In this document: positions 27,928-55,415 of the stretch, piece after piece
Position numbering within the stretch: the first letter of the stretch is position 1
Layout: each line of letters opens with the position of its first letter
Assembly (NCBI GenBank): GCA_963844035.1
Contig: CAWJMT010000002.1
Location: 25,780-89,779 of the forward strand
DNA length: 64,000 nt
Direction: 5' to 3'
Source: an uncultured Gemmatimonadales bacterium
Lineage (GTDB): Bacteria > Gemmatimonadota > Gemmatimonadetes > Gemmatimonadales > GWC2-71-9
Program-made: the position numbers and the translations under genes
Notes under the pieces: generated by a model
What the model was told of the DNA's origin: nothing
Database searches by the model: none
The model's input: only the letters and a program-made list of their open reading frames with translations

Positions 27928-27930
27928 GCG

Positions 27931-29770: not shown

Positions 29771-29777
29771 ATTTCAC

Positions 29778-30143: not shown

Positions 30144-30312
30144 TCCGCGACTCCTGGCACTTGGGATCGCCCCGAATCTGTAGCTGGGATGCAGCAGTCC
30201 GCCCCCGTTTCTGGAGGGCCCGCCGAGCCCACCAAACACAGCGTAACACCATAGTTGGCAACGATATACGCGCCAAAACCCAGGCGCGGACTTTCAGCCC
30301 GGCTCTTGCCCC

Positions 30313-31866: not shown

Positions 31867-32891
31867 CCCTTACTGTCGAGCGGTTCTCCGGTCTCGGCGC
31901 CGAGTGGGACGCGTTCGTCCGCCTTGCGGAGGGAGGCACGCATTGCCACCTCTGGGGGTGGAAGGCGGTCATCGAGCGGGTGCTCGGTCACGAGTGCCAC
32001 TACCTGGCGGCTCGCTCTCCCGAGGGCAGGCTCGTGGGCGTGCTTCCGCTCGTCTGCGTGTCCAGCCGGTTGTTCGGGTCCTACCTCGTCTCGATGCCCT
32101 TTCTGAATTCCGGGGGCGCGCTGGGTAGCGACCGGGCGGTGCAGGCGCTGGTTGCTCGAGCTATCGAGCTCGCCAGGACCGACGGCGTCGAGTTGCTGGA
32201 AATCCGCAGCCGCACCCCGCTTCCGCTGGATCTTCCCGTGTCACATCGCAAGATCACAGTGGTCCGGGACCTCGTGCCCGGCGACCCGGTCCGGGTGTGG
32301 GAAAGCCTGCGGGCAAAGGTGCGCAGTCAAATCCGTCGCCCGCAGAAAGAGGGCATTCAGGTGCGGTTCGGCCCCGATCAGGTCGGCGCCTTCTTCCGGG
32401 TGTTCTCGCAGCACATGCGTGACCTCGGCACCCCGACGCAGCCCCGGCGCTTGTTCGACGCCTTGGTCGATGCGTTTCCGGCCGACGTCTGGTTCGGATG
32501 CGCGTATGACGGCACCCGCCCGATTGCGGCAGGGTGCGGGTTTCGCTGGAATGGTGAGTTCGAGATGACCTGGGCCTCGTCGCTGGCGCGGTACAACGCC
32601 ATCGCTCCCAACATGCTGCTCTACTGGGCGTTCATGGAGCGGGCCGCTGCGGATCGCCTTGAGGTCTTCAACTTCGGCCGCTGCACACCGGGCAGCGGCA
32701 CGCACCGGTTCAAGCAACAGTGGGGTGGACGGGACGTGCCCCTGTGGTGGTATCAGCGCACGGCGGGGCAACGCGCGGCAACCCCTTCGCCCGACGACAA
32801 AGCCTTCGCGTGGGGGCCGCGCATGTGGAAGCGGCTGCCGCTGCCCATCGCCAACATGCTGGGACCGCGCGTCGTGCGCCTGATCCCGTGA
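31863..32891 (+). CDS. FemAB-family protein (PEP-CTERM system-associated type)
   Basis: Intact 342 aa, directly after the deacetylase as in exosortase-type loci: HCHLWGWKAVIERVLGHE...GVLPL...LFGSYLVSMPFLNSGG. Confidence 0.8.
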   Translation: MTLTVERFSGLGAEWDAFVRLAEGGTHCHLWGWKAVIERVLGHECHYLAARSPEGRLVGVLPLVCVSSRLFGSYLVSMPFLNSGGALGSDRAVQALVARAIELARTDGVELLEIRSRTPLPLDLPVSHRKITVVRDLVPGDPVRVWESLRAKVRSQIRRPQKEGIQVRFGPDQVGAFFRVFSQHMRDLGTPTQPRRLFDALVDAFPADVWFGCAYDGTRPIAAGCGFRWNGEFEMTWASSLARYNAIAPNMLLYWAFMERAAADRLEVFNFGRCTPGSGTHRFKQQWGGRDVPLWWYQRTAGQRAATPSPDDKAFAWGPRMWKRLPLPIANMLGPRVVRLIP

Positions 32892-34099
32892 TGCTCCGGC
32901 ACCAGCTTCCCGCCTACTCGCCGCTCAGCGGCGCCTCCCTCGGGCGCGCGCTCCTGCATGCGTTCGGCCCCGGGATGGATGGACAGGCTGAGCTGACCGC
33001 GATGCTCGAGCGGGAATATCGCGCCGATCGGGCTCTGCTCCTTGGAAGCGGCACCCAGGCCCTGCAGGTCGCCATCGCGCTCGCCATGCGGCACGTGGGC
33101 GATGCGGTCGTTGCGCTTCCGGCGTTCAGCTGTTTTGACGTGGCGGCCGCGGCTGTAGGCGCGCACGCGAGGATCAAGTTCTACGATCTCGACCCGACCA
33201 CTCTGGCGCCCGACCCGCGGTCGTTGGAGAGCGCGCTGGCGAGGGGCGCTCGCGTTGCGGTCATCGCCCCGCTGTACGGTTTCCCGGTCGATTGGGACGC
33301 GCTCGCAGACTTGCTCGTCCGATACGGCGCCATGGCCGTCGAAGATGCGGCACAAGGCGATCACGCCGAATGGCGGGGCCGGAAGCTGGGGAGTCTCGGC
33401 CCGATCAGCGTGTTGAGCTTCGGGCGAGGGAAAGGGTGGACGGGCGGCAGTGGCGGGGCGCTCCTCATCCGGGATCAGGCACCGTGGCAGGGGTTGCGAG
33501 ACACACTGATGGAGATGTCGAGCGGGACAGGGACGTCTCGCTGAGGTTCGCGTCCTCGGCGCGCTGGCGGCCCAGTGGGCGCTCGGCCGGCCGGAGTGTT
33601 ACGCGATCCCGCGCGCGGTGCCGCGGCTCCAATTGGGCGAGACCGTATATCACGATCCCGTGCCGCCGCGAGGGATGACCCGTGCGGCCTCCGCGTGTCT
33701 CGCGGCCAACCGGCCAGCGGCCGCGGAGGAGGCGGCGACGCGGCGCGCGACGGCGCTGGCGTTGCTTGCAGCGATCGGCTCCGGACGCGGGTGCGAGCCA
33801 TTCGGCCGCTCGCGGGGGCGACACCCGGATTCTGCGGTTGCCGCTGCGGCTCGCGGTGGCTTTCGGGGGTTTGCGACCCCTGCGACCGCAGGCCGCCTGG
33901 GGATTGCGCCGAGCTACCCGTCGGTGCTCGGCGCCATCCCGGAGGTGCGTCCATGGATGGATGACGCAACGTCCCAGCTGGCCGGGAAGCGACGGAGCTG
34001 GTCCGCACGCTCTGCACGGTGCCGACGCACTCCCTTGTCACATTGGGAGAGCGTGCCCAGTTGATCCGCGAGATCGAAGCCTATGAGCAGCGGACATGA
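32891..34099 (+). CDS. DegT/DnrJ/EryC1/StrS family aminotransferase; at least 2 frameshifts
   Basis: GSGTQALQVAI, PAFSCFDVAAA, VIAPLYGFPVDWDAL, AVEDAAQG, VLSFGRGKGWTGGSGGALL. The C-terminus (...LVTLGERAQLIREIEAYEQRT) is in another frame. Confidence 0.8.
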
Positions 34100-34273
34100 G
34101 GTCGAGCCTTCCGGCTCCCCATGGCCGCGTGACCTGGCACCAATGTTGCCGTCCACCCTGCGACGGCCGAACCTGGAAGGAGCGGAGTCTATGGCACCGC
34201 GGATTGAGCGTGGCACGAGCGTGACACAAGGGCACGAAGTGAGGGCGCCGCAGCGCGCCGCCGCGAGGCCGGC

Positions 34274-35767
34274 GTGACCGCGTCCGTAGCTCCGTCCCCA
34301 CCAATGAGCCCGCGCGTTCGCACGCCGGGACGGCGCCTGGTCGTGCTCAGCTATCACTTTCCGCCCGACGGCACCGTCGGCGGATTGCGCTGGTCGGGTT
34401 TCACCAAGTACCTGAGCGCGATGGGGTGGACCTGCTGGGTGATCACCGCGGCTCCAGCTCCGGATCCCGGGACCTTGCCCGCGGGTGTCATCGTACGATC
34501 GTACCCCCGGCGCCGCACGCTGAATGATTTGTACAACTGGCTGCGGCGGCCTCGGGGCCAGCGAGAGGCAGCGTTGCGATCCGGCACGGACGAGGCGGCG
34601 CCGCCACCACCCAGGAAGCCGAATGTGCTTCGGGCGTGTATCGACCGGCTGCGGTTGGAAGTCTCCATGCTGCTGTTCCTCCCCGACGAGGGCCGCGGGT
34701 GGATGCTGCGCGCCGCCTGGCACGCGCGGCGGTTGATCGTGCAGGTGCGTCCCGATGCGATCGTGAGCAGTGGTCCGCCGCACTCAGCCCACGTCGCCGC
34801 TTGGCTGGCGACCCGGGGCACGCAAACGCGATGGCTTATGGATCTTCGGGATCCTTGGGTCAGCCCTATCCCCTCGTGGTGGAGCTCCCATGCGAAGAAC
34901 CAAAGCCACGTGACGAGGTGGTTGAACCACGCGCTGGAGCGCCTCGCCATCAAGTCCGCGAGCGGCGTGGTGTGCACCAACCCTGAGCTTGTCGAGGCGA
35001 TGGCGGTTCGGTATCCCGGCGCCACGTTCGACTGGGTATCGAACGGAGTGGATCGGGATCTCCTGCCTCCTCGCACGCAGGCCCGCTTTCCCGGCTTCGG
35101 GATCGTGTACGCGGGCTCTCTATATGGAGCACACGACCTCGGACCAGTGCTCACCGCCCTCCGAGCCTTCCTGGATCGCAATCCGCGCGCCGGGGAGCAG
35201 GGGACTACGCTGCGGCTCGCGGGAACGATCGAGCCGTCCCACGGCGAGCGGTTGCGGCGTCAGATTCGGGCGCTGCGTCTCGAGGCCCACGTGGAGTTTC
35301 TCGGCATCTTGAAGCGGGAGGCAGCGCTCCAGCTCGTCGCGCGGTCCCGGCTTGTGATTGTGTTGGCGCAGACCTTGGCGCACCAGGTGCCGGCGAAACT
35401 GTTCGAGTCCGTGGCCATGGAGATCCCGACCCTCGTCTTCTGTTCCGCCGGGAGCGCGGCGCACTCGGCCGCGGCGCGCGCGGGTGCTACTGCGGTGCGG
35501 TCGGAGGACCTTCAGCGGACCGTCCACGCGATGGAGGACGCCTGGTTGGGACGCACGCCGGTGCCTCAGCCCACGACGCCGATCGACCACGGTCAATTGG
35601 CAGCCCAGGTGGAGCAGCTGATCGCCCCGCACGGTCTGCGGACGACGGCCCTGGGTCTGAGATTGCGGGAGAGTGGTATCGCCGCATTCCGCCGTCGTCA
35701 GGTCGGCGTCGAGCGACCCCCGGAGCCGCCGGAAGGCGACACGGTGTGCTGTAGCAGGTCTACGTAG
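34274..35767 (+). CDS. glycosyltransferase family 4 (group 1); exact ends uncertain
   Basis: Intact ORF: RRLVVLSYHFPPDGTVGGLRW...; C-terminal GT1 fold (FGIVYAGSLYG...LRLAG...KLFESVAMEIPTLVF). Confidence 0.75.
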   Translation: MTASVAPSPPMSPRVRTPGRRLVVLSYHFPPDGTVGGLRWSGFTKYLSAMGWTCWVITAAPAPDPGTLPAGVIVRSYPRRRTLNDLYNWLRRPRGQREAALRSGTDEAAPPPPRKPNVLRACIDRLRLEVSMLLFLPDEGRGWMLRAAWHARRLIVQVRPDAIVSSGPPHSAHVAAWLATRGTQTRWLMDLRDPWVSPIPSWWSSHAKNQSHVTRWLNHALERLAIKSASGVVCTNPELVEAMAVRYPGATFDWVSNGVDRDLLPPRTQARFPGFGIVYAGSLYGAHDLGPVLTALRAFLDRNPRAGEQGTTLRLAGTIEPSHGERLRRQIRALRLEAHVEFLGILKREAALQLVARSRLVIVLAQTLAHQVPAKLFESVAMEIPTLVFCSAGSAAHSAAARAGATAVRSEDLQRTVHAMEDAWLGRTPVPQPTTPIDHGQLAAQVEQLIAPHGLRTTALGLRLRESGIAAFRRRQVGVERPPEPPEGDTVCCSRST

Positions 35768-36870
35768 ATGCTCGCGTAGTGCGCCACCATGTGCGAGATG
35801 TCGTACAGGGCGGCGGCGCGGGCGGCGGCCTGTGCGCCGAGCCGCTGCGCCGCTTCAGGGTCCTGGAGCAGGCGATCGAGGGCACCCGCCAGTGCCTCGG
35901 AATTGCCCGGCTCGACCAAGAGTCCCGCTGCGCCTTCGCCCAACGCCGTAGGTACCTCGCCGACCCTCGTGGCGATAATTGGGCGGCTCGCGAACATTGC
36001 TTCGAGGAGCGCGAGGGGCAGACCCTCGGACAACGACGGCATCACGAAAATGTCCGCGCTGCTCAGTAAGTTCGGGACATCAGCACGCAAACCCAGGAAG
36101 TGGACTCGGTCGGCGATGTGGTGCTCGCGCGCCCACGCTTGGAGCTCGTCCGCGAGCTCTCCGCGGCCCGCTAGCGCAAGGTGCACGTTGGGATACCGGT
36201 CGGACAGCGAGGCGAGCGCGGCGAGCAGCACGCGGTGGCCTTTGACGGGATAGAGATTGCCGACCGCGAGCAGGAGTCGTTGGTCGGGTGCGAGTCCCAG
36301 CTCCGCGCGCAGCGATGAGTCCGCGTGGGCGCGCGGTCGCACACCGTTTGCGACTACGGTGATACGAGAGAGGCGGACCCGGAGATCAGTGCTCAAGCTG
36401 CCGGCCAATCGCTGCGAGACGGCGACGAGGCTCCCGCTGGCCGCGACGGCCAGCCGCATCGCGAGTCGACGACGCAGCGCCGCGGCGTAGTAGCGGCTGC
36501 CATGCATGGTGATCACATGCGGGATACCCGCACGCCAGGACGCCCATGCGCCGTAAACGGCCATCGAGAATTCGTGGCTGTGGGCGATGGCCGCGCGGTG
36601 GCGTCGCAATGTCGCGGCAAGCCATTTCGCGCAGGTGGGGGACACCGGTCGCTCCAGCCGAAAATGCTCGACCACCACCCCCGTCCCGCTCAGCTCGCGC
36701 TCGAGCCAACCTTCCCCATTCGCGGGAAGAATCACCAGGTTCTCGGTTCCCGCGGCCTGGAGCCTGGTCGCGATGTTCGCCACCGTTCGCTCCGCGCCGC
36801 CTGGCCCGTCGGTCTCGATCAGATGCGCGATCGAGAGCCCGCGCAGCCGCTCGAGGGGCGCCGCCGTCAT
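35698..36870 (-). CDS. glycosyltransferase family 4
   Basis: Start MTAAPLERL at 36870 (ATGA overlap with the upstream gene). GGAERTV, LLAVGNLYPVKGH, VMPSLSEGLPLALLEAMFASRPIIATRVGEVP. Confidence 0.85.
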   Translation of the reverse strand: MTAAPLERLRGLSIAHLIETDGPGGAERTVANIATRLQAAGTENLVILPANGEGWLERELSGTGVVVEHFRLERPVSPTCAKWLAATLRRHRAAIAHSHEFSMAVYGAWASWRAGIPHVITMHGSRYYAAALRRRLAMRLAVAASGSLVAVSQRLAGSLSTDLRVRLSRITVVANGVRPRAHADSSLRAELGLAPDQRLLLAVGNLYPVKGHRVLLAALASLSDRYPNVHLALAGRGELADELQAWAREHHIADRVHFLGLRADVPNLLSSADIFVMPSLSEGLPLALLEAMFASRPIIATRVGEVPTALGEGAAGLLVEPGNSEALAGALDRLLQDPEAAQRLGAQAAARAAALYDISHMVAHYASIYVDLLQHTVSPSGGSGGRSTPT

Positions 36871-37783
36871 CCGCGGACCGCCCGGTGGGGGCTCCAACCT
36901 GCGATCCAGGTTTGGAATGCTGCGTCGGAAATGTGTGCGGGGATATTCACGCGCGGCGCGGCCCAGGGATCGGTCTCGTGAGTCGTCAGATGCGCATCCA
37001 GGGTCAACGCCATTGTGTAGCCCGCCGCGCGGGCGGCGTCGCGCACGCGCTGGTCCCACAATCCATATGGATAGGCGAAGAACTCCGCGAGGACGCCACT
37101 GCGGTCGGCGAGCGTCTCACGGCTGTCGACCATCTCGCTGCGCAGTTCCGCGTCATTCAAACGCGGCAGGGCGCGATGGGTAGCGGTGTGGACACCCAGA
37201 TCGAGGCCGCCACGAACCGCCTTGCGAATGACGTCCCAAGTGGCGGGCAGCGTCAAGGGTGGGCGGGAGGGGGCGGGCGTGACGCCGAGGTCCTGCAGGA
37301 TCAGCCGACCCGTCGCCACGCAGATCGCCGAGCCAGCGCGCGGACGATGGGCCGCCGGCCCGCCGGGCGGCGTCCGGGTGATCCCACCAAAAGGGCGCGG
37401 GGGCCGATGCGCGCGCTCCGTCGACCGACAAACACCGTGGCGGGCAGGCCGCAACTCCGCCAGGACGGGCCACGCGTATTCGAACACGCCGCGGTACGCG
37501 TCGTCGAAGGTGATGGCCGCCAGCCTCCGCAGCGACTTCCCGGCGCGCATCCGGGCGATCAATTCACGCAGCGGAACGACGGAGTAGCGCGCAGCGAGAC
37601 AACATCATCTGCTCCCGGAACCGGGACTGGGTGATGTGGAGCCCGGTGTTGGCTGAGCTCGGGCGGCTCCTCGGCAACGACGTTGTGATAGCACAGGACG
37701 ACCGCAGCGTTGCGAAACTGCCGAACGGCCGCGGGCAGGCCAAGGGCTCGCAGTCCGGCGTAGTATAAGGAAGCGGCGTTCAT
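36867..37783 (-). CDS. polysaccharide deacetylase (NodB homology); several frameshifts
   Basis: The N-terminus (MNAASLYYAGLRALG...VLCYHNV) is in ORF 37559..38695. ITFDDAYRGVFEYAWPVL and FAYPYGLWD are in ORF 36867..37562. Confidence 0.7.
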
Positions 37784-39250: not shown

Positions 39251-39340
39251 CGCTGCTCAGAGCAAAGCCGCTGAAAGGCGGTGACGCAGAGCCACGGGAC
39301 TACCGCGAGAGGCTTCGCCACGTCCGCCGGGCCGCCAGCG
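39251..39340 (+). promoter_or_regulatory. c-di-GMP-I (GEMM-I)-like riboswitch aptamer, copy 1
   Basis: CGCUGCUCAGAGCAAAGCCGCUGAAAGGCGGUGACGCAGAGCCACGGGACUACCGCGAG..UUCGCCACGUCCGCCGGGCCGCCAGCG. Has the GCAAA, GNRA-capped hairpin, GACGCAxAGCC, CGGG.CUA and GCCGGGCyGCC hallmarks. Confidence 0.75.
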
Positions 39341-39381
39341 ATCGACGAATGGGTCGACGTGGTGGGCCGGCGTTTTCATTT
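39327..39381 (+). terminator. intrinsic terminator/expression platform of riboswitch copy 1
   Basis: CCGGGCCGCCA (39327-37) pairs with UGGUGGGCCGG (39360-70) and is followed by CGUUUUCAUUU. The 5-prime arm overlaps the aptamer 3-prime end. Confidence 0.6.
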
Positions 39382-39401
39382 ATGGAGGGCGGAGCTAGAC
39401 G

Positions 39402-41908
39402 ATGACGTTCAAGTACAAGCTGTCGTGCCGCCTGGCTCTGCTCAGAGATGCCGCTGCCGCTGCTCGCGGCGGCCGCCCTGGTCGCATGCGAGATCCCCGT
39501 CGTCAGCAGTGATCCAGCTGTCTCAGTCGTCCAAGTCGTCGTCGTCCCCGAAAGCCTCAGTCTCGACGCAGCTCAACAACAGAAGTTCGCAGCCTATGGC
39601 CGTTCCGCGAGCGGTGACAGCTCCGCCGTCACCGTGACCTGGAGTGCGACCGGGGGCAGCATTACGTCCGACGGGATGTTCGCCGCCGACACGGCCGCCG
39701 GGGACTTCCTGGTGTCGGCGACCAACGCCGCGCTCAAGCTCTCGGGCTCGTCGCGGGTGCGCATCCGGCCGCGTCCGGTCGCGTCGGTGGCCGTGACGCC
39801 GGCATCGGCGAGTGTGGTGTGGCGCAGACGATCCAGCTCGCCGCCACCCCGCGCGATGCGAACGGCAACGACGCTGTCGGGCCGGGTGGTGACGTGGGGG
39901 AGCAGCAACGCGGCCGTCGCGACGGTGAGCGCGAGTGGGCTCGTGACCGGCGTCGCGGCCGGTGCGGCGACGATTACCGCCACGAGCGAGGGCAAGAGCG
40001 CCACGTGCGGCGGTGACGGTCACGCCGGCGCCGGTGGCGTCGGTGACCGTGAGCCCGACACTGGCAAGCGTGCCGGTGGGGCAGACGGTGCAGCTCACCG
40101 CGACGCCGCGGGATGCGAACGGGAACGCCCTGACGGGGCGGGTCGTGAGCTGGGCGAGCAACAACACGGGGGTGGCGACGGTGAGCGGGAGCGGGCTCGT
40201 GACCCCGGTCGCGGCCGGCTCGGCGATCATCACGGCGACGAGCGAGGGCAAGAACGGCACGGCCGGGATCACGGTGACGCTGACGCCGGCGGCCGTGGCG
40301 TCGGTGAGCGTGAGTCCGGCGTCGGCGAATGTGATCGCGGGGCAGACCGTGCAGCTCACCGCGACGCCGCGGGATGCGAGCGGCAACGCGCTGTCGGGCG
40401 CGTCGTGACCTGGAGCAGCAGCAACAGCGCCGTGGCGACGGTGAGTGGCAGCGGGCTCGTGACGGGCGTGGGCGCCGGGTCCGGCGACGATCACGGCGAC
40501 GAGCGAGGGTCAGAGCGGCACGGCGGCGATCACCGTGCGCCGGCGCCAGCGCCGGTGGCGTCGGTGAGCGTGAGTCCGGCGCCCGGCGAGCGTGACGGCC
40601 GGGCAGACGGTGCAGCTCACGGCGACGCCGCGGGATGCGAGCGGCAATGCCCTCACGGGACGCGTCGTGACGTGGGGCAGCAGCAACACGCGCTGTCGCG
40701 ACGGTGAACGGCAGCGGGCTGGTGAGCGGCGTCGCGGCCGGGTCGGCGACGATCACCGCGACGAGCGAGGGAAAGAGCGGCACGTCCCTGGTGACCGTGA
40801 CTCCGGTGCCGGTGGCGACGGTGAGCGTCAGCCCGGCCGCGCCGAGCGTGGCGGCGGGGCAAACGGTGCAGCTCACCGCGACGCCGCGGGACGCGAACGG
40901 GAACGCGCTCGACGGGCGGGTCGTGACCTGGGGGAGCAGCAACACGGCGCGTCGCTACGGTGAACGGCACGGGGCTTGTGACGGGGGTCGCGGCGGGGTC
41001 GGCGACGGTGACCGCTACCAGTGAAGGCAAGAGTGGCAGCGCCGCCGTGACGGTGACGGCGACGTCGGGTGGCGGGACCGTGCTGTTCGAGGAGCACTTC
41101 GAGGACAACTCGTTCGCGTCGCGCGGCTGGTATGACAACACCAGCCCGCCCACCACGACCGCGGAGCACGCGCCCGGCAGCAGTACGCGCGCCTTGCAGC
41201 TGCACTTCACCCAAGGCGCCACGACTGCGGTGTCCGGTGGCTCGGCGCGGCATTTGTTCACCGCCTCGTCCACGGTCTACATCAGTTATTGGGTGAAATA
41301 CAGCACCAACTGGGTCGGCTCGGGCGAGGCGTATCACCCGCACGAGATCATGCTCCTGAGCGATCAGGACGGGGCCTATGACGGTCCGTCGACCAGCTGG
41401 CTCGCCGCCTATGTCGAGCACAACTACCAGAACGGCGGCATTCCGCGCCTGGCGTTGCAAGACAGCAAGGCCATCAACACGATCCTTCGGCACGCCGCCG
41501 TTCAACTTGAGCGGCGTTACCGAAAACCGCTCGACCTGCGGCTGCAACGGCGTCGTGGAACCGAACGTCGTCACGAGCTGCTTCAGCTTTCCGCCCTGGT
41601 ACAACGACAAAGAGATCATCTCGCCGACGAAGATTGCGCCGACGGCGTGGCGGAATCAGTGGATCCACGTGGAGGCCTACTTCCAGCTGAACTCGGTCGT
41701 CGGCGGCATCGGCGTGCCCGACGGCGTGATGCAGTACTGGTTCAACGGGACGCTGATGATCGACCGGCACGACATCCTGATGCGCACCGGCGCGCGCCCG
41801 ACCCTGAAGTTCAACCAGTTCCTGATCGCGGCGTACATCGGCGACGGGTCGCCGGTGGACCAGTACATGTGGATTGACGACCTCACGGTGGCCACGGCGA
41901 AGCCGTAG
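39402..41908 (+). CDS. lipoprotein with about 6 Big_2 (bacterial Ig-like) repeats and a C-terminal jelly-roll polysaccharide-lyase-like domain (type A); at least 10 apparent frameshifts
   Basis: MTFKYKLSCRLALLR... then ...LVACEIP lipobox. Repeats follow the pattern VSPAsAsV.aGQTVQLTATPRDAnGNALtGRVVTWgSSNtaVATVsgSGLVTGVAAGSATITATSEGKSGTAaVTV. The C-terminus runs LFEEHFEDNSFASRGWYDN...YHPHEIMLLSDQDG...WIHVEAYFQLNS...QYWFNGTLMIDRHD...WIDDLTVA. Confidence 0.75.
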
Positions 41909-41955
41909 CCGGAGGTCGGAAAGAGCAGGACGCAGGCGACAACTGATTCGACATA

Positions 41956-42045
41956 CGCTGCTCAGAGCAAAACCGCCGAAAGGCGGTGACGCAGAGCCAC
42001 GGGACTACGGCGAGTTCGCTCGCTACGTCCGCCGGGCCGCCAGCG
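41956..42045 (+). promoter_or_regulatory. c-di-GMP-I (GEMM-I)-like riboswitch aptamer, copy 2
   Basis: CGCUGCUCAGAGCAAAACCGCCGAAAGGCGGUGACGCAGAGCCACGGGACUACGGCGAGUUCGCUCGCUACGUCCGCCGGGCCGCCAGCG. Confidence 0.75.
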
Positions 42046-42083
42046 ATCCCCCGGGGTCGATACTGGCGGCCCGTTCGTTTTGG
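42034..42083 (+). terminator. intrinsic terminator/expression platform of riboswitch copy 2
   Basis: GGGCCGCCAG (42034-43) is perfectly complementary to CUGGCGGCCC (42063-72) and is followed by GUUCGUUUUGG. Confidence 0.65.
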
Positions 42084-42115
42084 CCGAACTGAAGCGAGAG
42101 GGAGAGACGAGTTTC

Positions 42116-44714
42116 ATGACATTCCTGCACAAGCTGGCACAGCGCCTGGCTCGACTGAAGACGGCCCTCATCGTGGGTGTCGTCGCGGCGATCGCGTGCG
42201 AGATACCGTTGCCGGTGGACCCATCAGGCACCATCGCGATGCTACTCGTCTCGCCCAAGGCGGTGACCACCCGCGCCGGGCAGATGGCGGATTTCGTGGT
42301 CGTCGGTCTGACCACCAGCGGTGACACGGCCAGCGTCCCCGTGACCTGGAGTGTCACCGGGGGGACGATGGTCGACACGAGCACGCAACGGCGGCAAGCA
42401 CTTCGGCAAGTACAAGGCGCCAATGTCCCCAGGGCGTTACAAGGTCGTGGCCCAGTCCGGCGGCGTCGCGGACTCCGCAGTCGTCGACGTGAGCGCTGTG
42501 CCCGTGGCGACGGTGAGCGTCAGTCCCGCGTCGGCCAGTGCGACGGTGGGACAGACGGTGCAGTTGACGGCGACGACGCGCGACTCCACCGGTGCCTCGC
42601 TGAGCGGCCGAATTGTGACGTGGGCGAGCAGCAACTCCGGTGTGGCGACGGTGAGCGCCAGCGGGTTGGTGACCGGCGTCGCGGCCGGCGCAGCGACGAT
42701 TACCGCCACGAGCGAGGGCAAGAGCGGAACCGCGGCGGTGACCATCACGCCGCCGCCGGTGGCGTCGGTGATCGTGAGCCCGGCGGCCGTGAGCGCCGCC
42801 CTAGGCCAGACGGCCCAGTTCACGGTCACGGCTGGAAGATGCGAGCGGGAACGTCCTGACGGGGCGGGCGGTGAGCTGGACGAGCAGCAACACGGGGGTG
42901 GCGACGGTGAGCGGTAGCGGGCTCGTGACCCCGGTCGCGGCCGGCTTGGCGATCATCACGGCGACGAGCGAGGGCAAGAACGGCACGGCGGGGATCACGG
43001 TGACGCTGACGCCGGCGGCGGTGGCGTCGGTGAGCGTGAGCCCGGCGTCCGCGAATGTGATCGCGGGGCAGACGCTGCAGCTCACCGCGACGGTGCGGGA
43101 TGCGAGCGGGAACGTGCTGCTAGGGCGCGTGGTGACGTGGGCCAGCGACGACGCCGGAACGGCGACGGTGAATGGCAGCGGGGTGGTGACGGGCGTTGAC
43201 GCGGGCACGGCGACGATTACGGCGACGAGCGAAGGCCAGAGCGGCTCGGCGGCCGTCACGGTCACCGTACCGGTGGCCACGGTGAGCGTGAGTCCCGCGT
43301 CCGCGAGCGTGATCGCGGGGCAGACGGTGCAGCTGACCGCGACGCCGCGCGATGCGAACGGGAACGTGCTGACGGGGCGCGTGGTGACGTGGGCCAGCAG
43401 CAACACCGGGCGGGCGACGGTGAATGGCAGTGGGCTCGTGACGGGCGTGAGCACCGGGACGGTGACGATCACGGCCACGAGCGAGGGGAAGAGCGGGACG
43501 GCGGCGCTGACGGTGACGCCGGTGCCAGTCGCCACCGTGACGGTCAGCCCGGCGACGCCCAGCGTGTCGGTCGGGCAGATGGTGCAGCTGACGGCCACGA
43601 CCAGGGATGGCAACGGCAACGTGTTGACCGGCCGCGTCATCACGTGGTCGAGCAACGCCCTTGGGACCGCCACGGTGAGCGGCAGCGGGCTGGTGACGGG
43701 TGTCGCTGCCGGCCCGGTCACGATCACGGCGACGAGTGAGGGGCAGAGTGGCTCGTCGGCCGTCACCGTCACGCCGCCGGCGCCCGTCGCCACGGTGAGC
43801 CTGAACCCGGCGACGCCCAGCGTGGCGGCGGGGCAGACGGTGCAGCTGACCGCGACACTCAGGGATGCCCTCGGCAACCCGCTGACCGGCCGCGTCATCA
43901 CGTGGTCGAGCAGCGCTGTGGGGACCGCGACGGTGAGCGGCAGCGGGTTGGTGACGGGCGTCGCCGTCGGGTTGGCGACGATCACGGCGACGAGCGAAGG
44001 CCGGAGCGGCACGGCCGCGGTGACGGTGGTGACCCCGCCGCCGCCCGGCACCACGTGGCCGAACGAGCCGGCGGGCTTTACGACCGTCACCGATTTCGGC
44101 TTCAACAATTTCAGCTCGGGCGGCTGGCAGACGAATTCCGGGCCGACCATCGCGACGGACTCAGTGCTCCGATCTCGCCGTCCACCGTCGCCCAGTGGTT
44201 CTATCGGCAGGGGTTTGGGGCCGGCGCATCGCCGGGCACGGTGTTTAACACCTCGTCGGTTGCGGGGGATCATTTCATCGGCTACGAGTTCAAGTACTCG
44301 AATCCCTACAGCAACCAGGCGGTGGGGACCAAGCAGTGGTATCCCTACAATCACGACCGCGGACTACTTCGTGCTCTTCAACAGTAGCTCGAAAATCCAG
44401 GTGGACCTGCAGGTGCCGGCGGCGCAGGGTGGGAGCTACAACCTGTACCGCCAATGTGAACGATCCGACGATCACGCTCGGCGTGTGGCACAAGTTTGAG
44501 ATGTACTTCAAGCGCTCGAGCAGTCCGACGACGGCGGATGGTATCGTGCGGTGGTGGATCGACGGGCAGCTGTGCGGCAACTACACGAACGTGAGGTGGC
44601 CGAGCACTGGGTTCGACGAATTGCGGTTCTGCGCCGACGTGGGGCGGGATCGGTGGCAGCGTGGCGTTCGACAGCTACTGGTGGGTCGATCACATCCACG
44701 TGAGCGAGCCGTAG
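42116..44714 (+). CDS. lipoprotein with about 7 Big_2 repeats and a C-terminal jelly-roll polysaccharide-lyase-like domain (type B); several frameshifts
   Basis: MTFLHKLAQRLARLK...AIACEIP lipobox. The 542-aa ORF 42871..44499 is almost all Big_2 repeats. The C-terminus runs WPNEPAGFTTVTDFGFNNFSSGGW...FKYSNPYSNQAVGTKQWYP...VWHKFEMYFKRSS..GIVRWWIDGQL...WVDHIHVSEP. Confidence 0.75.
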
Positions 44715-44956
44715 AGCTCCACCTGTGTGAGCCACCGCACACGGAAGACTGGTCAGACAAAAGCGCAAGTACACCAGAATGCAGCGAGCACAGGTGTAGC
44801 GCGTCGACGCAACTCTCGCTCTTGTCGACGGGTAGGTTGCACCACTTGTGCGGGTCACGAGCTCCTACTAGTCTGTCGTCCGTTGAATGTGCGCGGCAAT
44901 TTGTAGCCAGCACGCCTCGCGCGAAAATGGTTGTCGCACCCCGCTGAAACCAGCAC

Positions 44957-45044
44957 AGCTGACAAGAGCAAATCCGTCGAAAGACGGTGACGCAGAGCTA
45001 CGGGACTAACGCGAGCTTCTCGCCACGTCCGCCGGGCCGCCAGC
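44957..45044 (+). promoter_or_regulatory. c-di-GMP-I (GEMM-I)-like riboswitch aptamer, copy 3 (first of a tandem pair)
   Basis: AGCUGACAAGAGCAAAUCCGUCGAAAGACGGUGACGCAGAGCUACGGGACUAACGCGAGCUUCUCGCCACGUCCGCCGGGCCGCCAGC. Confidence 0.72.
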
Positions 45045-45085
45045 ACATCGAGAAGTCATCGAGCTGGCGGCCGTTTCGTTTGTGG
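45035..45085 (+). terminator. intrinsic terminator/expression platform of riboswitch copy 3
   Basis: GGCCGCCAGC (45035-44) is perfectly complementary to GCUGGCGGCC (45063-72) and is followed by GUUUCGUUUGUGG. Confidence 0.65.
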
Positions 45086-45162
45086 AAGTAGTGGTGCTGT
45101 TCTGTTGTTCTGTTGTTCTGTCGCTAACACGTCTGTTCGGAAGGATCGCCCCTCCCCAAGAG

Positions 45163-45262
45163 GAGTGCGACAAGGGCATAGCCGGCGAAAGCCGGTGACG
45201 CAAAGCCCCGAGGCTACCGCGCGGATCAGCCGCGTCACGCCAGTCGAGCTGCCGAACCTCAC
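45163..45262 (+). promoter_or_regulatory. c-di-GMP-I (GEMM-I)-like riboswitch aptamer, copy 4 (divergent; second of the tandem pair; no obvious terminator)
   Basis: GGGCAUAGCCGGCGAAAGCCGGUGACGCAAAGCCCCGAGGCUACCGCGCGGAUCAGCCGCGUCACGCCAGUCGAGCUGCC. Ends about 24 nt before the ATG at 45286, next to the GAGGGG Shine-Dalgarno sequence. Confidence 0.55.
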
Positions 45263-45285
45263 TCTCCAGTCTCGAGGGGCGTACA

Positions 45286-48200
45286 ATGACGTCCACAAGT
45301 CGGTTGTCGATCCGACTGGCCATGGCCAGTCGCGCAACGGTAGTACTCAGCGCCGTCGCCAGCATGGCATGCGGTTTGGGGGATCCCTCAAGCAGCGTGT
45401 CCAGCAGGCCGACGTTCGCCACGCCTGGTGCAGCACCAGCCACGGTCTTGTTACAGGAATCCTTTGAGGATAACGCGTTTGCGTCGCGCGGCTGGTACGA
45501 CAATGCAAACCTAGCGACCACGACGGCCCAGCACGTCCCCGGGAGTACGCGCGCCCTGGAAGCTCACTTCACCCCCGGTGCGACCACGCCCACCTGGGGC
45601 GGCGCGGCGCGCCACCTGTTCACGCCGACCCCTACGCTGTATGTCAGCTATTGGGTCAAGTACAGCACCAATTGGGTGGGCTCGGGCCGCTCGTACCACC
45701 CGCACGAGTTCCTGGTGCTGAGCGATCAGGACGGCGATTGGGATGGCCCGTCGAACAACTGGCTGACGTTCTATGTCGAGCACAACTACCAGAACGGCGG
45801 CATCCCGCGGTTGGCGCTTGCAGGACAACAAGGCGATCAACACGACCTTGGGTGCCCTGCCACTGAACCTGGTCGAGCGCGACGGAGAATCGCTCGACCG
45901 CAGGGTGCAACGGCGTGGTGGAGCGAATGTCGTCACGACCTGCTTCAACATGCCGCCCTGGTACAACGACAAGGAGATACCGCCGCCCAGGTCGCGTTCC
46001 AGCCCAACCCTGGTCCAGGTTACAAGAGGCGACTGGAATCATGTCGAAGTCTATGCTCAACTGAACTCAGTGTCGGCGGGGATCGGCCAGGCCGACGGTG
46101 TATTGCAGTATTGGTTCAACGGCACGCTCGTGATCGACCGGCACGACATGCTGTTCCGCACTGGCGCGCGTCCCAATATCCAATTCCGCCAGTTCCTGAT
46201 CGCGCCGTACATCGGCGATGGCTCGCCGGTCGATCAGTACGCCTGGTTCGACGACCTCACCGTCGCCTCGGGGCAGATCGCCGGCGTCCCGAGTCCGTCG
46301 GTCTCGTTGGTGACGATCAATCCCGCCGTAGTCAGCGTAGTCGTCGTGCGGCACGACCCAGCTGGCGGCGACGGTCAATGATTCGGCCGGAAGCGCATTG
46401 GCCGGGCGTGCTTCCACGTGGGTGAGCAGTGCGCCCGCGGTTGCGACGGTGAGCGCGAGCGGGCTCGTGACGGGGATCGCCGCCGGGTCGGCACGATCAC
46501 GGCGACGAGCGAGGGGAAGAGTGCGACGGCGAGCCTCACGGCGACCAGCACCGCCACGAACCCGGGAACGGTGACCGACCTGAAGGTCGCGAGCGTGACG
46601 AACAACTCGGTGAGACGCTCACGTTCACCGAGGTGAACGACGGCAGCGGCAATCCGGCGAGTTACGACATCCGCGGGGCGGCCGGGACATTCGCGTGGGG
46701 GCTCGGCGGTCTCGGTATCGCAGGGCACGTGTGCGACGCCCGTGGCCGGGACGGCGATTGGCGCGGCGCGGAGCTGTACGCGCTCGGCTCGTCCCGCGAC
46801 CGCGTACCAGTTCCAGCTGGTGCCCTCCGGGACGCTCAACGTGAACGCGACGTTCGGCGCGCTCTCGAACGTGGCGAGTGGGACGACCGCTACGGGACCC
46901 GGGGCACCGCTGCCGGCGCTGGTGGCGACCGTGAGCGTGACTCCCGCCGCGGCAAACGTCACCGTTGGGTAGGGTCCCGTCAACTCGCGGCGACACCGGC
47001 CCAGCGGGGGCAGCGTGCTGACCGGCCGCACGGTCACGTGGGCGAGCAGTGCGCCCGGTGTGGCGACGGTGGACGCGGTGGCCGGTTACAGGACTCACGG
47101 CCCGCGCAGCACCATCACGGCCACGAGTGAAGGGAAGAGCGGGAGCGCCGCGATCGCCGTCGCCAGCGTCCCTGTGGCCACGGTGACGTGTGACTCCCTC
47201 GAGCGGGAGTGTCATGGTGGGGAGCACGCAGCAGTTCACGGCGACTCTCAAGGATGCGGGCGGCGTGACGCTCACCGGGCGGACGGTTGTGTGGGCGAGT
47301 AGTACACCCGCGGTTGCGACGGTGAGCGCGAGCGGGCTCGTGACAGGGATCGCCGCCGGGTCGACCACGATCACGGCGACGACCGAAGGGAAGAGTGCGA
47401 CGGCGAGCATAACGGTGACCAGCACCGCCACGAAACCGGGCGCGGTGACCGACCTGAAGGTCGCGAGCGTGACGAACAACTCGGTGACGCTCACGTTCAC
47501 CGAGGTGAACGACGGCAGCGGCAATCCGGCGAGTTACGACATCCGCGGGGCGGCCGGGACATTCGCGTGGTGGTCGGCGGTCTCGGTATCGCAGGGCACG
47601 TGTGCGGCGCCCGTGGCTGGCACGGCGATTGGGGCGAAGCGGAGTTGTACGGTGCTGGGGTTGAATGCGGCCACGGCCTACCAGTTTCAGCTGGTGGCAT
47701 TACGGGGGACGCTCAACGTGAACGCGACGTTCGGCGCGTTGTCGAACGTGGCGAGTGGGACGACCGTGACGGGACCCGGGGTGCCTCCGCCTCCGCCTCC
47801 AGCGCCGGTGGCGACCGTGAGCGTGACTCCAGCCGCGGCGAGCGTCACGGTTGGTGGGGACGGTGGCGCTGGCGGTAGCTTCTACGCGATGCCAGCGGGA
47901 ACGTGCTCGTCGGGCCGCGGGGTCACGTGGTCGTCCAATGCGCTCAGCGTGGCGACCGTGAACGTGAACGGGCTCGCGACGGCGCTGGTCGTCGGCTCGG
48001 CCGCGATCACGGCGACGAGCGAAGGCCAGAGCGGCACGGCCGCAGTGACCGGGCTGACCTCACCACCTCCACCCGCGGGCGGGGCGTGGGCGAATGAGCC
48101 GACCGGCTTTACGACGGTGACCGATTTCGGCTTCGACAACTTCAGTTCGGGCGGCTGGCGTACGAATTCCGGGCCGACCATTACGACGGATGCGAGTGCC

Positions 48201-48749
48201 CTGGTGTCGCCGTCGAACGTGGCCCAGTGGCGGTATCCGCAGGGGTTCGCCGCCGGCGCCTCGCCTGGGGACGGTCTACTACGGTCCGACCACGCCGGTC
48301 ACGGATCATTTCATTGCCTATGACTTCAAGTACTCGAATCCCTACAGCAACCAGGCGGTGGGGACCAAGCAGTGGTATCCCACAATGCGACGGCGGACTA
48401 CTTCGTGCTGTTCAACAGCAGCTCGAAGATCCAGGTGGACCTACAGGTGCCGGCGGCGCAGGGCGGGAGCTACAACCTGTATGCCAACGTGAACGATCCG
48501 ACGATTACGCTCGGTGTGTGGCACAAGTTTGAGATGTACTTCAAGCGCTCGAGCACTCCGACGACGGCGGATGGGATCGTGCGGTGGTGGATCGATGGGC
48601 AGTTGTGCGGCAGCTTCCACACGAACGTGAGATGGCCGAGCACTGGGTTCGACGAATTGCGGTTCTCACCGACGTGGGGAGGGTCGGCGGCAGCGTCGCG
48701 TTCAACAGCTTCTGGTGGGTCGATCACATTCACGTCAGCAAGGCCGTAG
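45286..48749 (+). CDS. large modular lipoprotein: N-terminal type-A lyase-like domain, Big_2 and FN3-like repeats, C-terminal type-B lyase-like domain; many frameshifts
   Basis: MTSTSRLSIRLAMASRATVVLSAVASMACG lipobox. The type-A domain (LQESFEDNAFASRGWYDN...YHPHEFLVLSDQDG...WFDDLTVA) is followed by Big_2 units, an FN3-like unit (PGTVTDLKVASVTNNSVTLTFTEVNDGSGNPASYDIR) present twice, and a type-B C-terminus (WANEPTGFTTVTDFGFDNFSSGGW...WVDHIHVS). Confidence 0.7.
46434..46965 (+). repeat. copy 1 of an about 870-bp-period internal duplication (Big_2 + FN3 module) in the 45286 gene
   Basis: Long near-identical nucleotide runs shared with 47307-47850, for example gtgagcgcgagcgggctcgtgac.gggatcgccgccgggtcg and ttcaccgaggtgaacgacggcagcggcaatccggcgagttacgacatccgcggggcggccgggacattcgcgtgg. 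Confidence 0.85.
47307..47850 (+). repeat. copy 2 of the internal duplication
   Basis: Offset of 873 nt from copy 1 (cccgcggttgcgacggtgagcgcgagcggg at 46434 and at 47307). Confidence 0.85.
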
Positions 48750-48884: not shown

Positions 48885-49701
48885 ATGAGCCGGTTTGTGT
48901 GGTCGCACTCGCTGCGGACGAGGGTATCCCTCGTTCTCTTGTCAGGCCTCGTGCCACTCGCATGCGGCCCGTCGTCAGACTCGGATGGACCGTGGCCGAA
49001 CGAGCCCCGGGGCTACACCGTGTACTCCGACTGGGCGATGGATTCCGCGCCCCCCGCCAACATCCCCGACGGGCCTATCCGGGCACCAGCACCTGGCGTG
49101 CCCGAACAGGTCTGCCGGGGGACCCCGACGGCTGGATCGAGCTCGCTGCGGATGCAAGCGGTGCTCATTCGGCCACGGCCGTGTATCAGTTCGCGTACCC
49201 GACCGGGATGCGAGACGGTGCGGGTCCCGGGCAGATTTGGAGTGCCCTCCCCAATTTCAACCGCGTGTACGTTGGCTTTTGGTGGAAGCTGTCCGATCCG
49301 TGGCAGTATCACGACGTCGGCGATAAGCTCGGCTATTTGTGGGCCGGCAGCAGCAACATGTTCCTGATTCAGTATGGCAGTCCCCCCAGTCTGCGCTGCG
49401 TATGTGCAGTTCTTCGGTCTCTCAATGGCTCTATCCGAACGTCAACTCCACGACCGTCACTCGCGGCGTGTGGCATCGCGTCGAGCTCTTCGCTCAGTAC
49501 ATCCCGGGACAGAAGGGTCGCGTGAAATGGTGGCTCGACGGCGTGCTGCAGGGGGACTACGGGACGTGGTCTGCCGGCGCCATCCCCGGACAGTTCACTG
49601 AGTTGTCGTTTCGATCCGGTGCTGGGGCGGTAACAGACGGCTCAGTGAAGGGCGAGACGGATTACTTCTGGTTCGACGACATCCACATCAGCGGCCAGTA
49701 A
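48885..49701 (+). CDS. stand-alone type-B lyase-like jelly-roll lipoprotein; at least 2 frameshifts
   Basis: MSRFVWSHSLRTRVSLVLLSGLVPLACG lipobox; GPWPNEPRGYTVYSDWAMD; YQFAYPTGMRDGAGPGQIW...FWWKLSDPW; VWHRVELFAQYIPGQKGRVKWWLDGVL...YFWFDDIHISGQ. Confidence 0.65.
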
Positions 49702-51047
49702 CGTCCGGTGCGCCGGTCGCGTGACTTTGCGCAGCGCGATCGCGAGGGCGAGCAAGGCGTAGAGCATCCCTCGTGGTAGGCGGCGAGCGAAAGAACGCAC
49801 CGACGGCAAAGCCCAGCAGCGACGCAGCCAGCGCTTGTGGGCGAGGGCTCCCGCTCCGTTTGCGTGCATGGCGCGATCGCCGGGCGATCTCCCTGAGGGC
49901 TCGCCACGCCGTGGCGAGCATCAAGACAAACCACAAGAGACCTGGCACGCCGAGCTCTGCCCCAACCTGTACGTACGTGTTGTGCGCGGCGCTTCACTGA
50001 TCCGATCCCGGCGTTCTTGACGGGCTGCGAGAGGAGAATCGCGCCTTCAGCGACCGGGAAGTTATCGGCGCCGACGCGGGCTCCAAGGAATGGGTGTTGT
50101 CCATGTACCTGATGACCGCGCTTCCAGATGGCAACGCGTCCGCGTTCTTCGTTTCGTTGTAGTCCTCCTCGGAGTCGAAGATCGTGCTCATCTGAGTCCA
50201 GTATCGGTCGCTCGCGATTGCGAGGAACACCGCCGCGACGACCGCGACACCGAGCACGCGCCAGCGAATCGGGATCGTCGAGGTAGCGGAATAGGATGAA
50301 CAGCGCGACCGGCACCAAGGCGATGAAGCTCCCACGGGAGCCCGACCAAATGAATCCGACAATGAGCGCGCCCACGCCTGCGGCCGCGAGCAGCCGATTG
50401 AGAAGGGCTCGTCGCGCCAGCGTGAAGTACAAGCCGAGGGGCAGGGCGGTAACCACGAGGGTCGCGAAGTCGTTGGCGTCATAGTAATAGATGGTGCCGA
50501 GCCGCCAGGATGCTCCCCCGACATCGAAGCGAAGCAAGACCACCAGCGCGTACAATGCCGCGCCGGCGAAGTACATGAATGCCAGGCGCTCGACGTCCTT
50601 CGTATTCCGCACCGCTCCCACGATGAGTAGGTAGAGAATCACGGTCTTGATAAAGCGGTCCGTGAGGAGGTCGAATACGGCCCCGGGATACAGGGCACCA
50701 GGAATCGAAAGCGCGATCCACAACAGCAGTACCAGGAGGTACTTCGTCGTGGGCGCGAACAGCAGACCCAAACGCCGCGCCCCCGTGTGGTGGAGCGCGT
50801 ACAGGCAGATCGCGGCGGCTCCGCTGACAAGGGGCAACTTGACCAGCGTCAGGATGGGGAAGAGCTCGTGGATGCGACCGACGGCCGTGAGGAGGTGAAG
50901 GGCGATACAAACGAGCAGCAAGTCCCAAGCGCGGTCGCGGGCCTGGGGTATGGCGGGGCTCGGACTGGGCCTAACCTGCGGTCCAGGCCCCGCCGAGTGG
51001 GTGACGCCCGACATCGGACCTACCGCAAGCGTGCGACTAGCGTGCAA
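49688..51047 (-). CDS. O-antigen ligase/polymerase-like (Wzy_C) polytopic membrane protein; several frameshifts; 3-prime end uncertain
   Basis: Multiple TM helices (LLLVCIALHLLTAVGRI, YLLVLLLWIALSIPGALY, LYALVVLL), IWSGSRGSFIAL, and HNTYVQVGAELGVPGLLWFVLML by conceptual translation in the frame of ORF 49688..49948 (the listed ORF starts at MPGLLWFVLML). Confidence 0.65.
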
Positions 51048-52060
51048 GGATGCCTTCCGTCGTGCGCAGGGGCGCTATCACGGGCGTCGGACGCACGGGC
51101 GCCTCTTGGACCGTCACCGCCTGCTCGGCCGCCGCCAGGCAGGCGGCGGAGAGCGTCGCATCGTAGCGACGCGGACGGAGGATTGCCCAGGCGGCAAGCG
51201 GCTCCGGCAAGCGGCCACGCGCGGCAGCCAGCGCGAAGCGCGCCATCTGCAGTGCCGTCGCGATCAGGCTGATCGGGACCCACACAAGACGGCTGCGCCA
51301 CCCACGTGCGCGGAACGCATCGCGCAGGTTTCCCCTCGTTGCGATCGTGGGATCGAAGAGATTCAACACCGGAGGCGCCTGCTCGAATTCCGTGGCACAC
51401 CACGCGATCACTCCCGCGGCGCGCCCGACCTCGCAGGCTGCGAACGGCAGGCCGGGCCGCCCGAGCGCCAGATGCCAGGGACCGAAGAGACGGCGTCCCA
51501 CCAGTCCCGGAAGCTCGATGTGCTCCCAGTCGATCAACGCGCCCGGCCGGACGATTCGCGCGTCGATTGCTCCCGCGCGTTGCGCCGCCGTGACGACCTG
51601 CTCGGCGGTGCACTTGCCCCACGTGTAGGGTCCGAGCGTCTCCGATTTGGAGGCCACGGGCGTCCGTTCGTCCTGCCGTTCCCACGGGCTGTGGGGCGGC
51701 TCGAGCACTGAGAGACTGCTCACCAGCACGAGGTGGCGAACCCGTGCGGCAGCCATCGCGCCTACAAGGTTCTTGGTGGCGTCAACGGTATTCTTGCGAT
51801 GAGCGTCGATACCAGCTGCAGTCTCGGCGGCTGCGTGAACGACCACCGCTACGCCGTTGAGCGCGCCATCCGGGTACGCCCCGACTGAGATCGCCGCGGA
51901 TCCACTCGGCGAGGTGCGGGTTGTCGGGCGTCTCCGAGCGCCCGATGCCGCGAACCCGCCAGCCGCGCCGCGCGAGCTGCGCGACGATCTCGCGGCCAAG
52001 AAATCCGCTGGCTCCTGTCACCAACGCGAGCGGACGCTCTGCCGTGCGGCCCGACTTTCG
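51037..52060 (-). CDS. NAD-dependent epimerase/dehydratase (SDR) domain, in frame with the upstream Gfo/Idh/MocA region; frameshift near 51850-51990
   Basis: Rossmann motif ALVTGASGFLGREIVAQLARRGWRVRGIGR in ORF 51782..52588. The rest (VVVHAAAE...YTWGKCTAE...) is in ORF 51037..51999. Confidence 0.7.
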
Positions 52061-55414: not shown

Positions 55415-55415
55415 C

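Follow-up and report, generated by a model that had tools for sequence, protein, structure and literature searches.

Riboswitches of the c-di-GMP-I family (GEMM-I, Rfam RF01051), with Vc2 of Vibrio cholerae as their type, have long been known and are among the best-characterised riboswitch classes. Their aptamer, which binds cyclic di-GMP (c-di-GMP), is a three-helix junction in which the GAAA tetraloop of the first arm docks on a receptor-like bulge of the second arm (CUA(A/C)...(C/U)A(C/U)G), GCAAA and GACGCA form junction strands, and the ligand-contact set is G20/A47/C92. A second group, the GEMM-Ib riboswitches of Geobacter (Gs1761, pilM, pgcA), responds to 3′,3′-cyclic GMP-AMP (abbreviated 3′,3′-cGAMP or c-AMP-GMP), and its signature is an adenine at position 20, which is A14 in Gs1761 (PMC9481103, PMC6140456). 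Members of the c-di-GMP-I family also occur in series, and a review of tandem riboswitches reports 347 doublets, with no cGAMP/c-di-GMP pair among the logic gates of its Table 2 (PMC9481103). Here we analyze a stretch of 64,000 nucleotides (the window; positions 25,780 to 89,779 of contig CAWJMT010000002.1, assembly GCA_963844035.1) from an uncultured Gemmatimonadota soil bacterium of the order Gemmatimonadales, in which an initial annotation, made from the letters alone, had proposed four copies of a leader RNA with a conserved fold. We conclude with high confidence that the four leaders are riboswitches of the c-di-GMP-I family, each made of a three-helix-junction aptamer for a cyclic dinucleotide and an expression platform of its own. 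The fold itself is not new.

We scanned the whole window against Rfam and obtained four matches to RF01051 above the curated threshold (gathering score of 35 bits), all on the plus strand, with scores of 57.7–66.6 bits and E-values from 1e-8 to 7e-11. These were the only Rfam matches above threshold in the window; each extends over the full model (positions 1–87), and they fall where the four copies had been placed. Scores are also given below for R1, a covariance model that we built from the four window copies.

39251 to 39340, plus strand: aptamer 1 (Rfam match 39251–39339, 57.7 bits, E = 1.2e-8; R1 105.6 bits); pocket positions 20/47/92 are A/A/C, with G48 and C90
41956 to 42045, plus strand: aptamer 2, of the A20/G48/C90 subclass (Rfam match 41956–42044, 65.0 bits, E = 1.9e-10; R1 110.2 bits)
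44957 to 45045, plus strand: aptamer 3, of the A20/G48/C90 subclass and first of a tandem pair (Rfam match 44957–45044, 62.9 bits, E = 6.2e-10; R1 100.4 bits)
45165 to 45256, plus strand: aptamer 4, second of the tandem pair, with the canonical c-di-GMP-I pocket G20/A47/C92 together with A48 and U90 (Rfam 66.6 bits, E = 7.4e-11)

All four share with the Vc2-type riboswitches the three-helix junction, the tetraloop and its receptor-like bulge, the two junction strands, A47 and C92, and a place in the 5′ leaders of cell-surface genes. They are intergenic, oriented like the genes that follow, and succeeded by terminators or a Shine-Dalgarno (SD) sequence. Judged by its conserved nucleotides, copy 4 has every feature of a c-di-GMP-I aptamer, and copies 1–3 have all of them except G20. 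We therefore file the four copies as further members of the family, a finding that is real but ordinary: one of the best-characterised riboswitch classes was rediscovered from raw sequence, which indicates that the covariation reasoning works but contributes no novel type of element. Only one thing is unusual: the pocket of three copies is a variant, and one of these copies stands in tandem with a standard one.

The fold is borne out by compensatory changes. We scored a structure of 28 pairs, consisting of P1, a two-pair P1a, a six-pair GNRA-capped P1b, and a bipartite second arm with a terminal hairpin. In the four copies alone, 93.8% of the cells hold standard pairs, a value that drops to 23–45% when the partners are slid by one to three columns, and both sides change in seven pairs, which none of 500 shuffles matched. 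Because four paralogous copies hold few independent events, we turned to larger samples. A pattern search that kept one genome per species gave at least 120 loci; running R1 on the window and the first 99 loci yielded 123 aptamers, and the remaining loci 26 more. Among the matches listed, 121 distinct related aptamers from other genomes have standard pairs in 92.7% of the cells (column shuffles, 77%; slid partners, at most 42%), and compensatory changes in 21 of the 28 pairs (457 cells). A second, broader metagenome sample, for which the signature of the subclass was not required, provided 119 distinct sequences, likewise 92.7% paired and with compensation in 25/28 pairs. Both alignments had been fitted to our model, so 48 sequences were realigned with MAFFT and folded by RNAalifold without constraint; P1a and P1b came back, as did the two parts of the second arm, with compensatory changes in 16 of 22 predicted pairs. 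The GAAA loop is identical in 123/123 aptamers, but the search pattern demanded GAAA.

The wider alignment that the initial annotation had proposed as a check is thus favorable, and its claim of a functional structured RNA, as opposed to a coding or purely DNA-level repeat, agrees both with this covariation and with RF01051 scores far above threshold. Pairs that vary without compensation were not seen in the larger alignments, with the sole exception of A49 and position 90: the nominal pair A49-C90 is a conserved A.C mismatch in the A20/G48/C90 subclass (114/120 sequences). As for the details, the GNRA hairpin is as it had been described, namely CCGCU-GAAA-GGCGG, CCGCC-GAAA-GGCGG, CCGUC-GAAA-GACGG, and CCGGC-GAAA-GCCGG in copies 1–4, with a fourth stem pair of C-G, C-G, U-A, and G-C, and a closing pair that is U.G in copy 1 and C-G elsewhere. 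For the inner hairpin of the second helix, the stems (GCGAG/UUCGC, GCGAG/CUCGC, GCGAG/CUCGC, and CGCGG/CCGCG) and the first three loops (AGGC, UUCG, and CUU) hold, and the loop of copy 4 has to be amended from AUCA to the five-nucleotide AUCAG. The blocks that had been called single-stranded fared worse. GACGCAxAGCC is not invariant in copies 1–3, copy 3 reading GACGCAGAGCU, where a C-G pair becomes U.G. The blocks are largely helix strands, the GC of GCAAA pairing with the GC of GACGC, and ACGUCCGCCGGGCCGCC is made up of the 3′ strand of the second helix and the junction. What goes beyond the initial annotation is the recognition that the class was already described, the pairing of some of these blocks, and the A49-C90 mismatch.

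In leaders 1–3, the minimum-energy fold is a long hairpin followed by a U-rich tract, and the 5′ arm of the hairpin is the 3′ strand of the aptamer, GGGCCGCCAGC, which takes in the second arm's end, the junction that holds C92, and the 3′ strand of P1.

39325 to 39381, plus strand: terminator 1, stem 39325–39372 and U-tract UUUUCAUUU at 39373–39381; RNAfold −36.3 kcal/mol
42030 to 42082, plus strand: terminator 2, GGGCCGCCAGCGAUC...CUGGCGGCCC followed by GUUCGUUUU, stem at about 42033–42073; RNAfold −33.3 kcal/mol
45030 to 45082, plus strand: terminator 3, GGCCGCCAGC...GCUGGCGGCC followed by GUUUCGUUUG, stem at about 45035–45072, as folded by RNAfold

The aptamers and terminators of copies 1–3 thus overlap structurally; the 5′ arm of terminator 1, for instance, is aptamer 1's own 3′ strand (CGCCGGGCCGCCAGC). 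A terminator that reuses the 3′ strand of the aptamer is present in 111/132 distinct related aptamers among the matches listed. A simple promoter and terminator scan of the window found only part of one terminator, that of riboswitch 2, because the stems have long or branched loops. Since aptamer and terminator share a strand and are mutually exclusive, ligand-dependent read-through is predicted. Without ligand the terminator would form and transcription would stop; with ligand the strand would be held in the aptamer and RNA polymerase would read into the gene, so that copies 1–3 would act as transcriptional ON switches. The cGAMP riboswitch of Geobacter pilM has the same mutually exclusive ON mechanism (PMC9262584).

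Copy 4 is built differently, with neither U-tract nor terminator. The 3′ strand of its P1 ends in CCUC, which is able to pair with the SD sequence GAGGGG seven bases ahead of the ATG, and RNAfold pairs ACGCCAGUCGAG with CUCGAGGGGCGU in this leader.

45151 to 45163, plus strand: CCUC...GAGG element upstream of aptamer 4, making up regions 1 and 2 in a layout of four elements; kept in 10 orthologous leaders
45253 to 45288, plus strand: expression platform of riboswitch 4, with the P1 3′ strand carrying the anti-SD sequence CGAACCUC at 45253–45260, the SD sequence GAGGGG at 45274–45279, and the ATG at 45286

The layout CCUC, GAGG, aptamer, CCUC, GGAGG (SD), AUG is common to these 10 orthologous leaders, where it surrounds the second, G20-bearing (G-type) member of a tandem pair in the window and in loci L018, L045, L062, L072, L082, L105, L157, L215, and L239. 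It resembles an attenuator in which pairings 1:2 and 3:4 compete with 2:3. Pairings 1:2 and 3:4 would hide the ribosome-binding site of copy 4, and a ligand-stabilised 2:3 pairing, that is, an extended P1 with the anti-SD CCUC joined to the 5′ GAGG, would free it. We consider it likely, with moderate confidence and with less certainty than for copies 1–3, that copy 4 is a translational ON switch.

The contact set G20/A47/C92 separates the two kinds of aptamer. Copy 4 has G/A/C and is predicted to bind c-di-GMP; copies 1–3 keep A47 and C92 and have an adenine at model position 11, the equivalent of Vc2 G20, with which that RNA reads the ligand's alpha base. This adenine (A14 in Gs1761) is the GEMM-Ib feature, and in copies 1–3 it comes together with G48 and C90. 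Position 48 corresponds to A42 of Gs1761, a pocket nucleotide close to the beta guanine (PMC6274999). When we measured the linkage of these positions in a metagenome sample with positions 20 and 48 left free, G48 was present with A20 in 12/22 sequences and with G20 in 0/90 (Fisher p = 1.5e-10), and was always accompanied by C90. A20/G48/C90 is therefore a discrete subclass, in which G48 never occurs with G20 in the samples examined, and which has its own J1/2 junction sequence, CUCAGA. Among the matches listed it is widespread, mainly in Gemmatimonadota and Nitrospirota, and the related aptamers come overwhelmingly from metagenome-assembled genomes (MAGs) of Gemmatimonadales and Longimicrobiales. 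A second A20 group, clearly apart from the subclass and often in tandem, keeps A48, with the junction CGAUAAUAGCAAA and the 3′ end GCCAGUUACCGAAAGG; it was found on metagenome contigs (L162, L178, L203, L208, and L220), L178 being labelled human gut.

Copies 1–3 thus depart from the c-di-GMP-I type in A20, G48, C90 with its A49.C90 mismatch, and the CUCAGA junction, and all four copies in their host. With GEMM-Ib, copies 1–3 share A20 alongside A47 and C92, the strand common to terminator and aptamer (a transcriptional ON design), the tandem copies, and the extracellular or surface functions of their targets. They differ from it in G48/C90, in the G-C/C-G base of the GNRA helix, and in targets that are Big_2/lyase-like lipoproteins instead of cytochromes or pili. 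For this comparison we take Gs1761 to have an A at the equivalent of position 48, with a U as its pairing partner. The numbering agrees with PMC6274999.

The minimum-energy folds of leaders 1 and 2 also pair GCUC, which straddles P1's end and the beginning of the junction, with G48-A49-G50-C51 (in copy 1, 39255–39258 with 39289–39292). The A20/G48 subclass may thereby have an alternative helix of its own in the ligand-free state. We considered whether G48 and CUCAGA are conserved solely for such an OFF-state helix, but this is not the whole explanation, since copy 3 has G48 without CUC, as do at least eight relatives according to the column counts.

Copy 3 lies 120 nt upstream of copy 4. With its terminator, copy 3 spans 44957–45082, and copy 4 with its SD control spans 45165–45288, so that a single leader, that of the third gene, holds a pair of complete riboswitches that have separate expression platforms. 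In this the locus is like the doublets and triplets known for c-di-GMP-I (347 doublets in PMC9481103); unlike the doublets and gates listed there, its members differ in pocket (A20/G48, then G20/A48) and in mechanism (termination, then translation). Acting in series, both would need their ligand for the gene to be expressed. The arrangement of an A20 (A-type) followed by a G-type aptamer recurs in at least 11 loci (the window, L018, L045, L062, L068 as A, A, G, L072, L082, L105, L157, L215, and L239). The G-type members of these tandems are orthologues of copy 4, and every one stands ahead of a lipoprotein signal peptide; the lyase-like domain of the window is also encoded by the gene downstream in L018, L045, and L068 at least. 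The reverse order was found in L030 and L117, and A-then-A pairs are also present; retrieval of the loci by an A-type pattern kept G-then-G pairs out of the count. The modest value of this work lies in the discrete pocket subclass, in its repeated pairing, in a fixed order, with a canonical aptamer, and in the setting of the switches ahead of lyase-like lipoproteins described below. Some of the relatives have longer series. A Gemmatimonadales MAG (L068:311-7419) mirrors the window with six aptamers in 8 kb, three of them single A-types each ahead of a gene and the others an A-A-G triplet, and L096:1981-2388 has three A-type aptamers 64 nt apart, each with its own terminator. In the window, a short tandem repeat at 45099–45122, three units of GTTCTGTT, occupies part of the spacer that separates terminator 3 from aptamer 4.

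Copies 1–3 could bind c-di-GMP, 3′,3′-cGAMP, or both. The reading that survives best, to which we give a real if slightly less than even chance, is that all four copies sense c-di-GMP. The A20/G48/C90 pocket would then be a lower-affinity, faster-exchanging form suited to kinetically controlled termination, G20 would serve the equilibrium translational switch, and the tandem would sharpen the response to a single ligand or set two thresholds. Vc2 with the G20A change still binds c-di-GMP, weakened from picomolar to 53 nM, and the natural A20 aptamer Cbe 1-2 binds c-di-GMP better than cGAMP (PMC6140456). The division of labor fits as well, A-type aptamers being tied to terminators (the 111/132 above) and G-type tandem partners to SD control, and doublets of one and the same class are very common in c-di-GMP-I (PMC9481103). 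All seven GGDEF open reading frames (ORFs) in the sampled loci have the canonical Asp. What this reading does not account for easily is that at least 11 loci keep two discrete pocket types as neighbors in a fixed order, with no intermediates, G48 being combined with G20 in 0/90 sequences; the literature, moreover, takes A20 as the hallmark of cGAMP-responsive variants.

That hallmark is the starting point of a second reading, which we regard as possible and rather unlikely: copies 1–3 would prefer cGAMP or accept both ligands, like the GEMM-Ib riboswitches of Geobacter, and copies 3 and 4 would form a natural two-input AND gate that needs cGAMP and c-di-GMP. Position 20 touches the ligand's alpha base, and an adenine there is the known cGAMP signature; the pocket position 48 (A42 in Gs1761) is G only together with A20 (12/22 vs. 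0/90); and the A-then-G tandem recurs, each member with its own expression platform. Against this, A20 alone confers dual specificity and not cGAMP selectivity, Vc2 G20A binding c-di-GMP at 53 nM and cGAMP at 120 nM (PMC9481103, PMC6140456), and the GNRA helix, at whose base point changes reportedly affect selectivity, retains G-C/C-G there in the window aptamers. A host that makes 3′,3′-cGAMP would do so with a Hypr GGDEF enzyme, in which a Ser replaces the Asp that reads guanine, or with a DncV-type enzyme. No such synthase, neither a Hypr GGDEF nor a CD-NTase, was found in a search for a synthase signature among the GGDEF ORFs of the window and 240 loci; the seven matches, all from the loci and all with the canonical Asp, are too few to be informative, and no GGDEF gene was seen in the scanned parts of the window. 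We give a similarly doubtful standing to the broader proposal that the A20/G48/C90 form of GEMM-I is a distinct specificity class, for 3′,3′-cGAMP or another dinucleotide, whose pairing of an A-type terminator switch with a translational switch of the G-type would integrate two cyclic-dinucleotide messengers, as a natural AND gate made of RNA, in the control of exported lyase-like lipoproteins. No cGAMP/c-di-GMP gate came up in our literature searches, an absence that is not proof of novelty. If the two pockets do read different messengers, the locus would provide a natural two-messenger logic gate and evidence of cGAMP-type signalling well beyond Geobacter.

It is improbable that the subclass senses some other ligand, such as a further dinucleotide, cyclic or linear. 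A linked set of three changes around the pocket and a conserved J1/2 of its own, CUCAGA, do make it a discrete subclass, it is found mostly in phyla whose riboswitch ligands are unstudied, and Rfam already contains GEMM-I pocket variants of unknown ligand (c-di-GMP-I-GGC and c-di-GMP-I-UAU; PMC12452182). However, A47 and C92, which recognize and stack on the G-beta base, are unchanged, and the associated genes (surface proteins, PilZ, and PilM) are typical of cyclic-di-purine signalling. Finally, genes 1–3 are paralogues and the leaders were probably duplicated along with them, but the idea that the copies are a mere DNA-level repeat or part of a coding sequence, with no RNA function, can be dismissed in view of helix substitutions that compensate across the alignments, in more than 200 independent sequences from several phyla, of the strong Rfam scores, and of the intergenic, gene-co-oriented placement ahead of a terminator or SD sequence.

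The riboswitches, which very probably belong to the c-di-GMP-I family whichever dinucleotide copies 1–3 bind, stand before three genes. Each leader or leader pair precedes a gene that starts with a lipoprotein-type signal peptide.

39402 to 41908, plus strand: gene 1, lipoprotein-type signal peptide, Big_2 repeats (Pfam E = 6e-18), and a C-terminal beta-jelly-roll lyase-like domain; frame broken several times (tblastn)
42116 to 44714, plus strand: gene 2, signal peptide, at least five Big_2 repeats (Pfam E = 1.6e-59), and a different C-terminal domain; frame broken several times
45286 to 46280, plus strand: gene 3, lipoprotein signal peptide (…ASMAC) and the lyase-like domain of gene 1; one frameshift near 45820–46080; aligned to 15 homologues

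The C-terminal domain of genes 1 and 3 has about 280 residues and no Pfam match; soil metagenomes contain more than 250 homologues of it, frequently joined to Big_2 or fn3 domains. The AlphaFold model of an intact homologue (mean predicted local distance difference test, pLDDT, 77) is a beta-jelly roll whose best matches in the PDB are the alginate lyase Aly36B, the PL14 lyases vAL-1 and Aplysia AkAly30, and a PL20 glucuronan lyase (polysaccharide lyase families PL36, PL14, and PL20; E = 2.6e-10 to 5.7e-8). On this model, the domain resembles polysaccharide lyases, and we call it lyase-like. Using the homologue P0010, with which genes 1 and 3 had been traced, tblastn gave no match to the C-terminal domain of gene 2 (44050–44714), which matches Polysacc_lyase PF14099 weakly (E = 1.3e-5, below the cut-off of the family). 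Downstream of the related aptamers, 51/112 ORFs among the matches listed contain Big_2, and PilZ, PilM, and PL14 domains also occur. Cyclic-dinucleotide switches would govern exported Big_2/lyase-like lipoproteins, an arrangement consistent with second-messenger control of the cell surface and matrix. The locus places such riboswitches ahead of lipoproteins of this kind in an XrtA/PEP-CTERM locus of a little-studied soil phylum; a literature search for c-di-GMP riboswitches in Gemmatimonadota found no paper.

Several points weigh against reading the four leaders as working c-di-GMP-I switches that turn these genes on. Copies 1–3 lack the canonical G20, and to call them c-di-GMP sensors is not justified by their sequence. 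RNAalifold predicts for the copy 4 layout a 1:4 pairing, of the upstream CCUC with the SD sequence, which could form in the ligand-bound state and would reverse the logic, so the ON direction is not secure there. Each of the three controlled genes is frameshifted in this assembly, either through decay of the genes themselves or through indel errors spread unevenly over the assembly, as might arise at G/C runs or in a region where strains vary. We also looked for sequencing runs with this sequence that could inform on transcription and the frameshifts, and the best share 5–6% of the sampled words, none of them usable.

Genes 1 and 2 change frame about every 400–500 bp and gene 3 a single time; the Big_2/fn3 gene that follows (46350–48323) is also affected. 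Several genes of the surrounding exopolysaccharide locus look truncated, and recA, alaS, and ftsK (about 6.5 kb together), which the same chromosome carries, are intact; the G+C content of the window is 67%. The exopolysaccharide locus, of the XrtA/PEP-CTERM type, occupies about 25800–37600 and 49600–57400.

30840 to 31787: XrtA-system deacetylase (TIGR03006), partial match
31791 to 32891: FemAB-family protein (TIGR03019), above cut-off
49662 to 51047: putative O-antigen-ligase-like protein
55871 to 57373: amidotransferase (TIGR03108), partial match

It also holds glycosyltransferases, a DegT aminotransferase, and a low-molecular-weight phosphatase.

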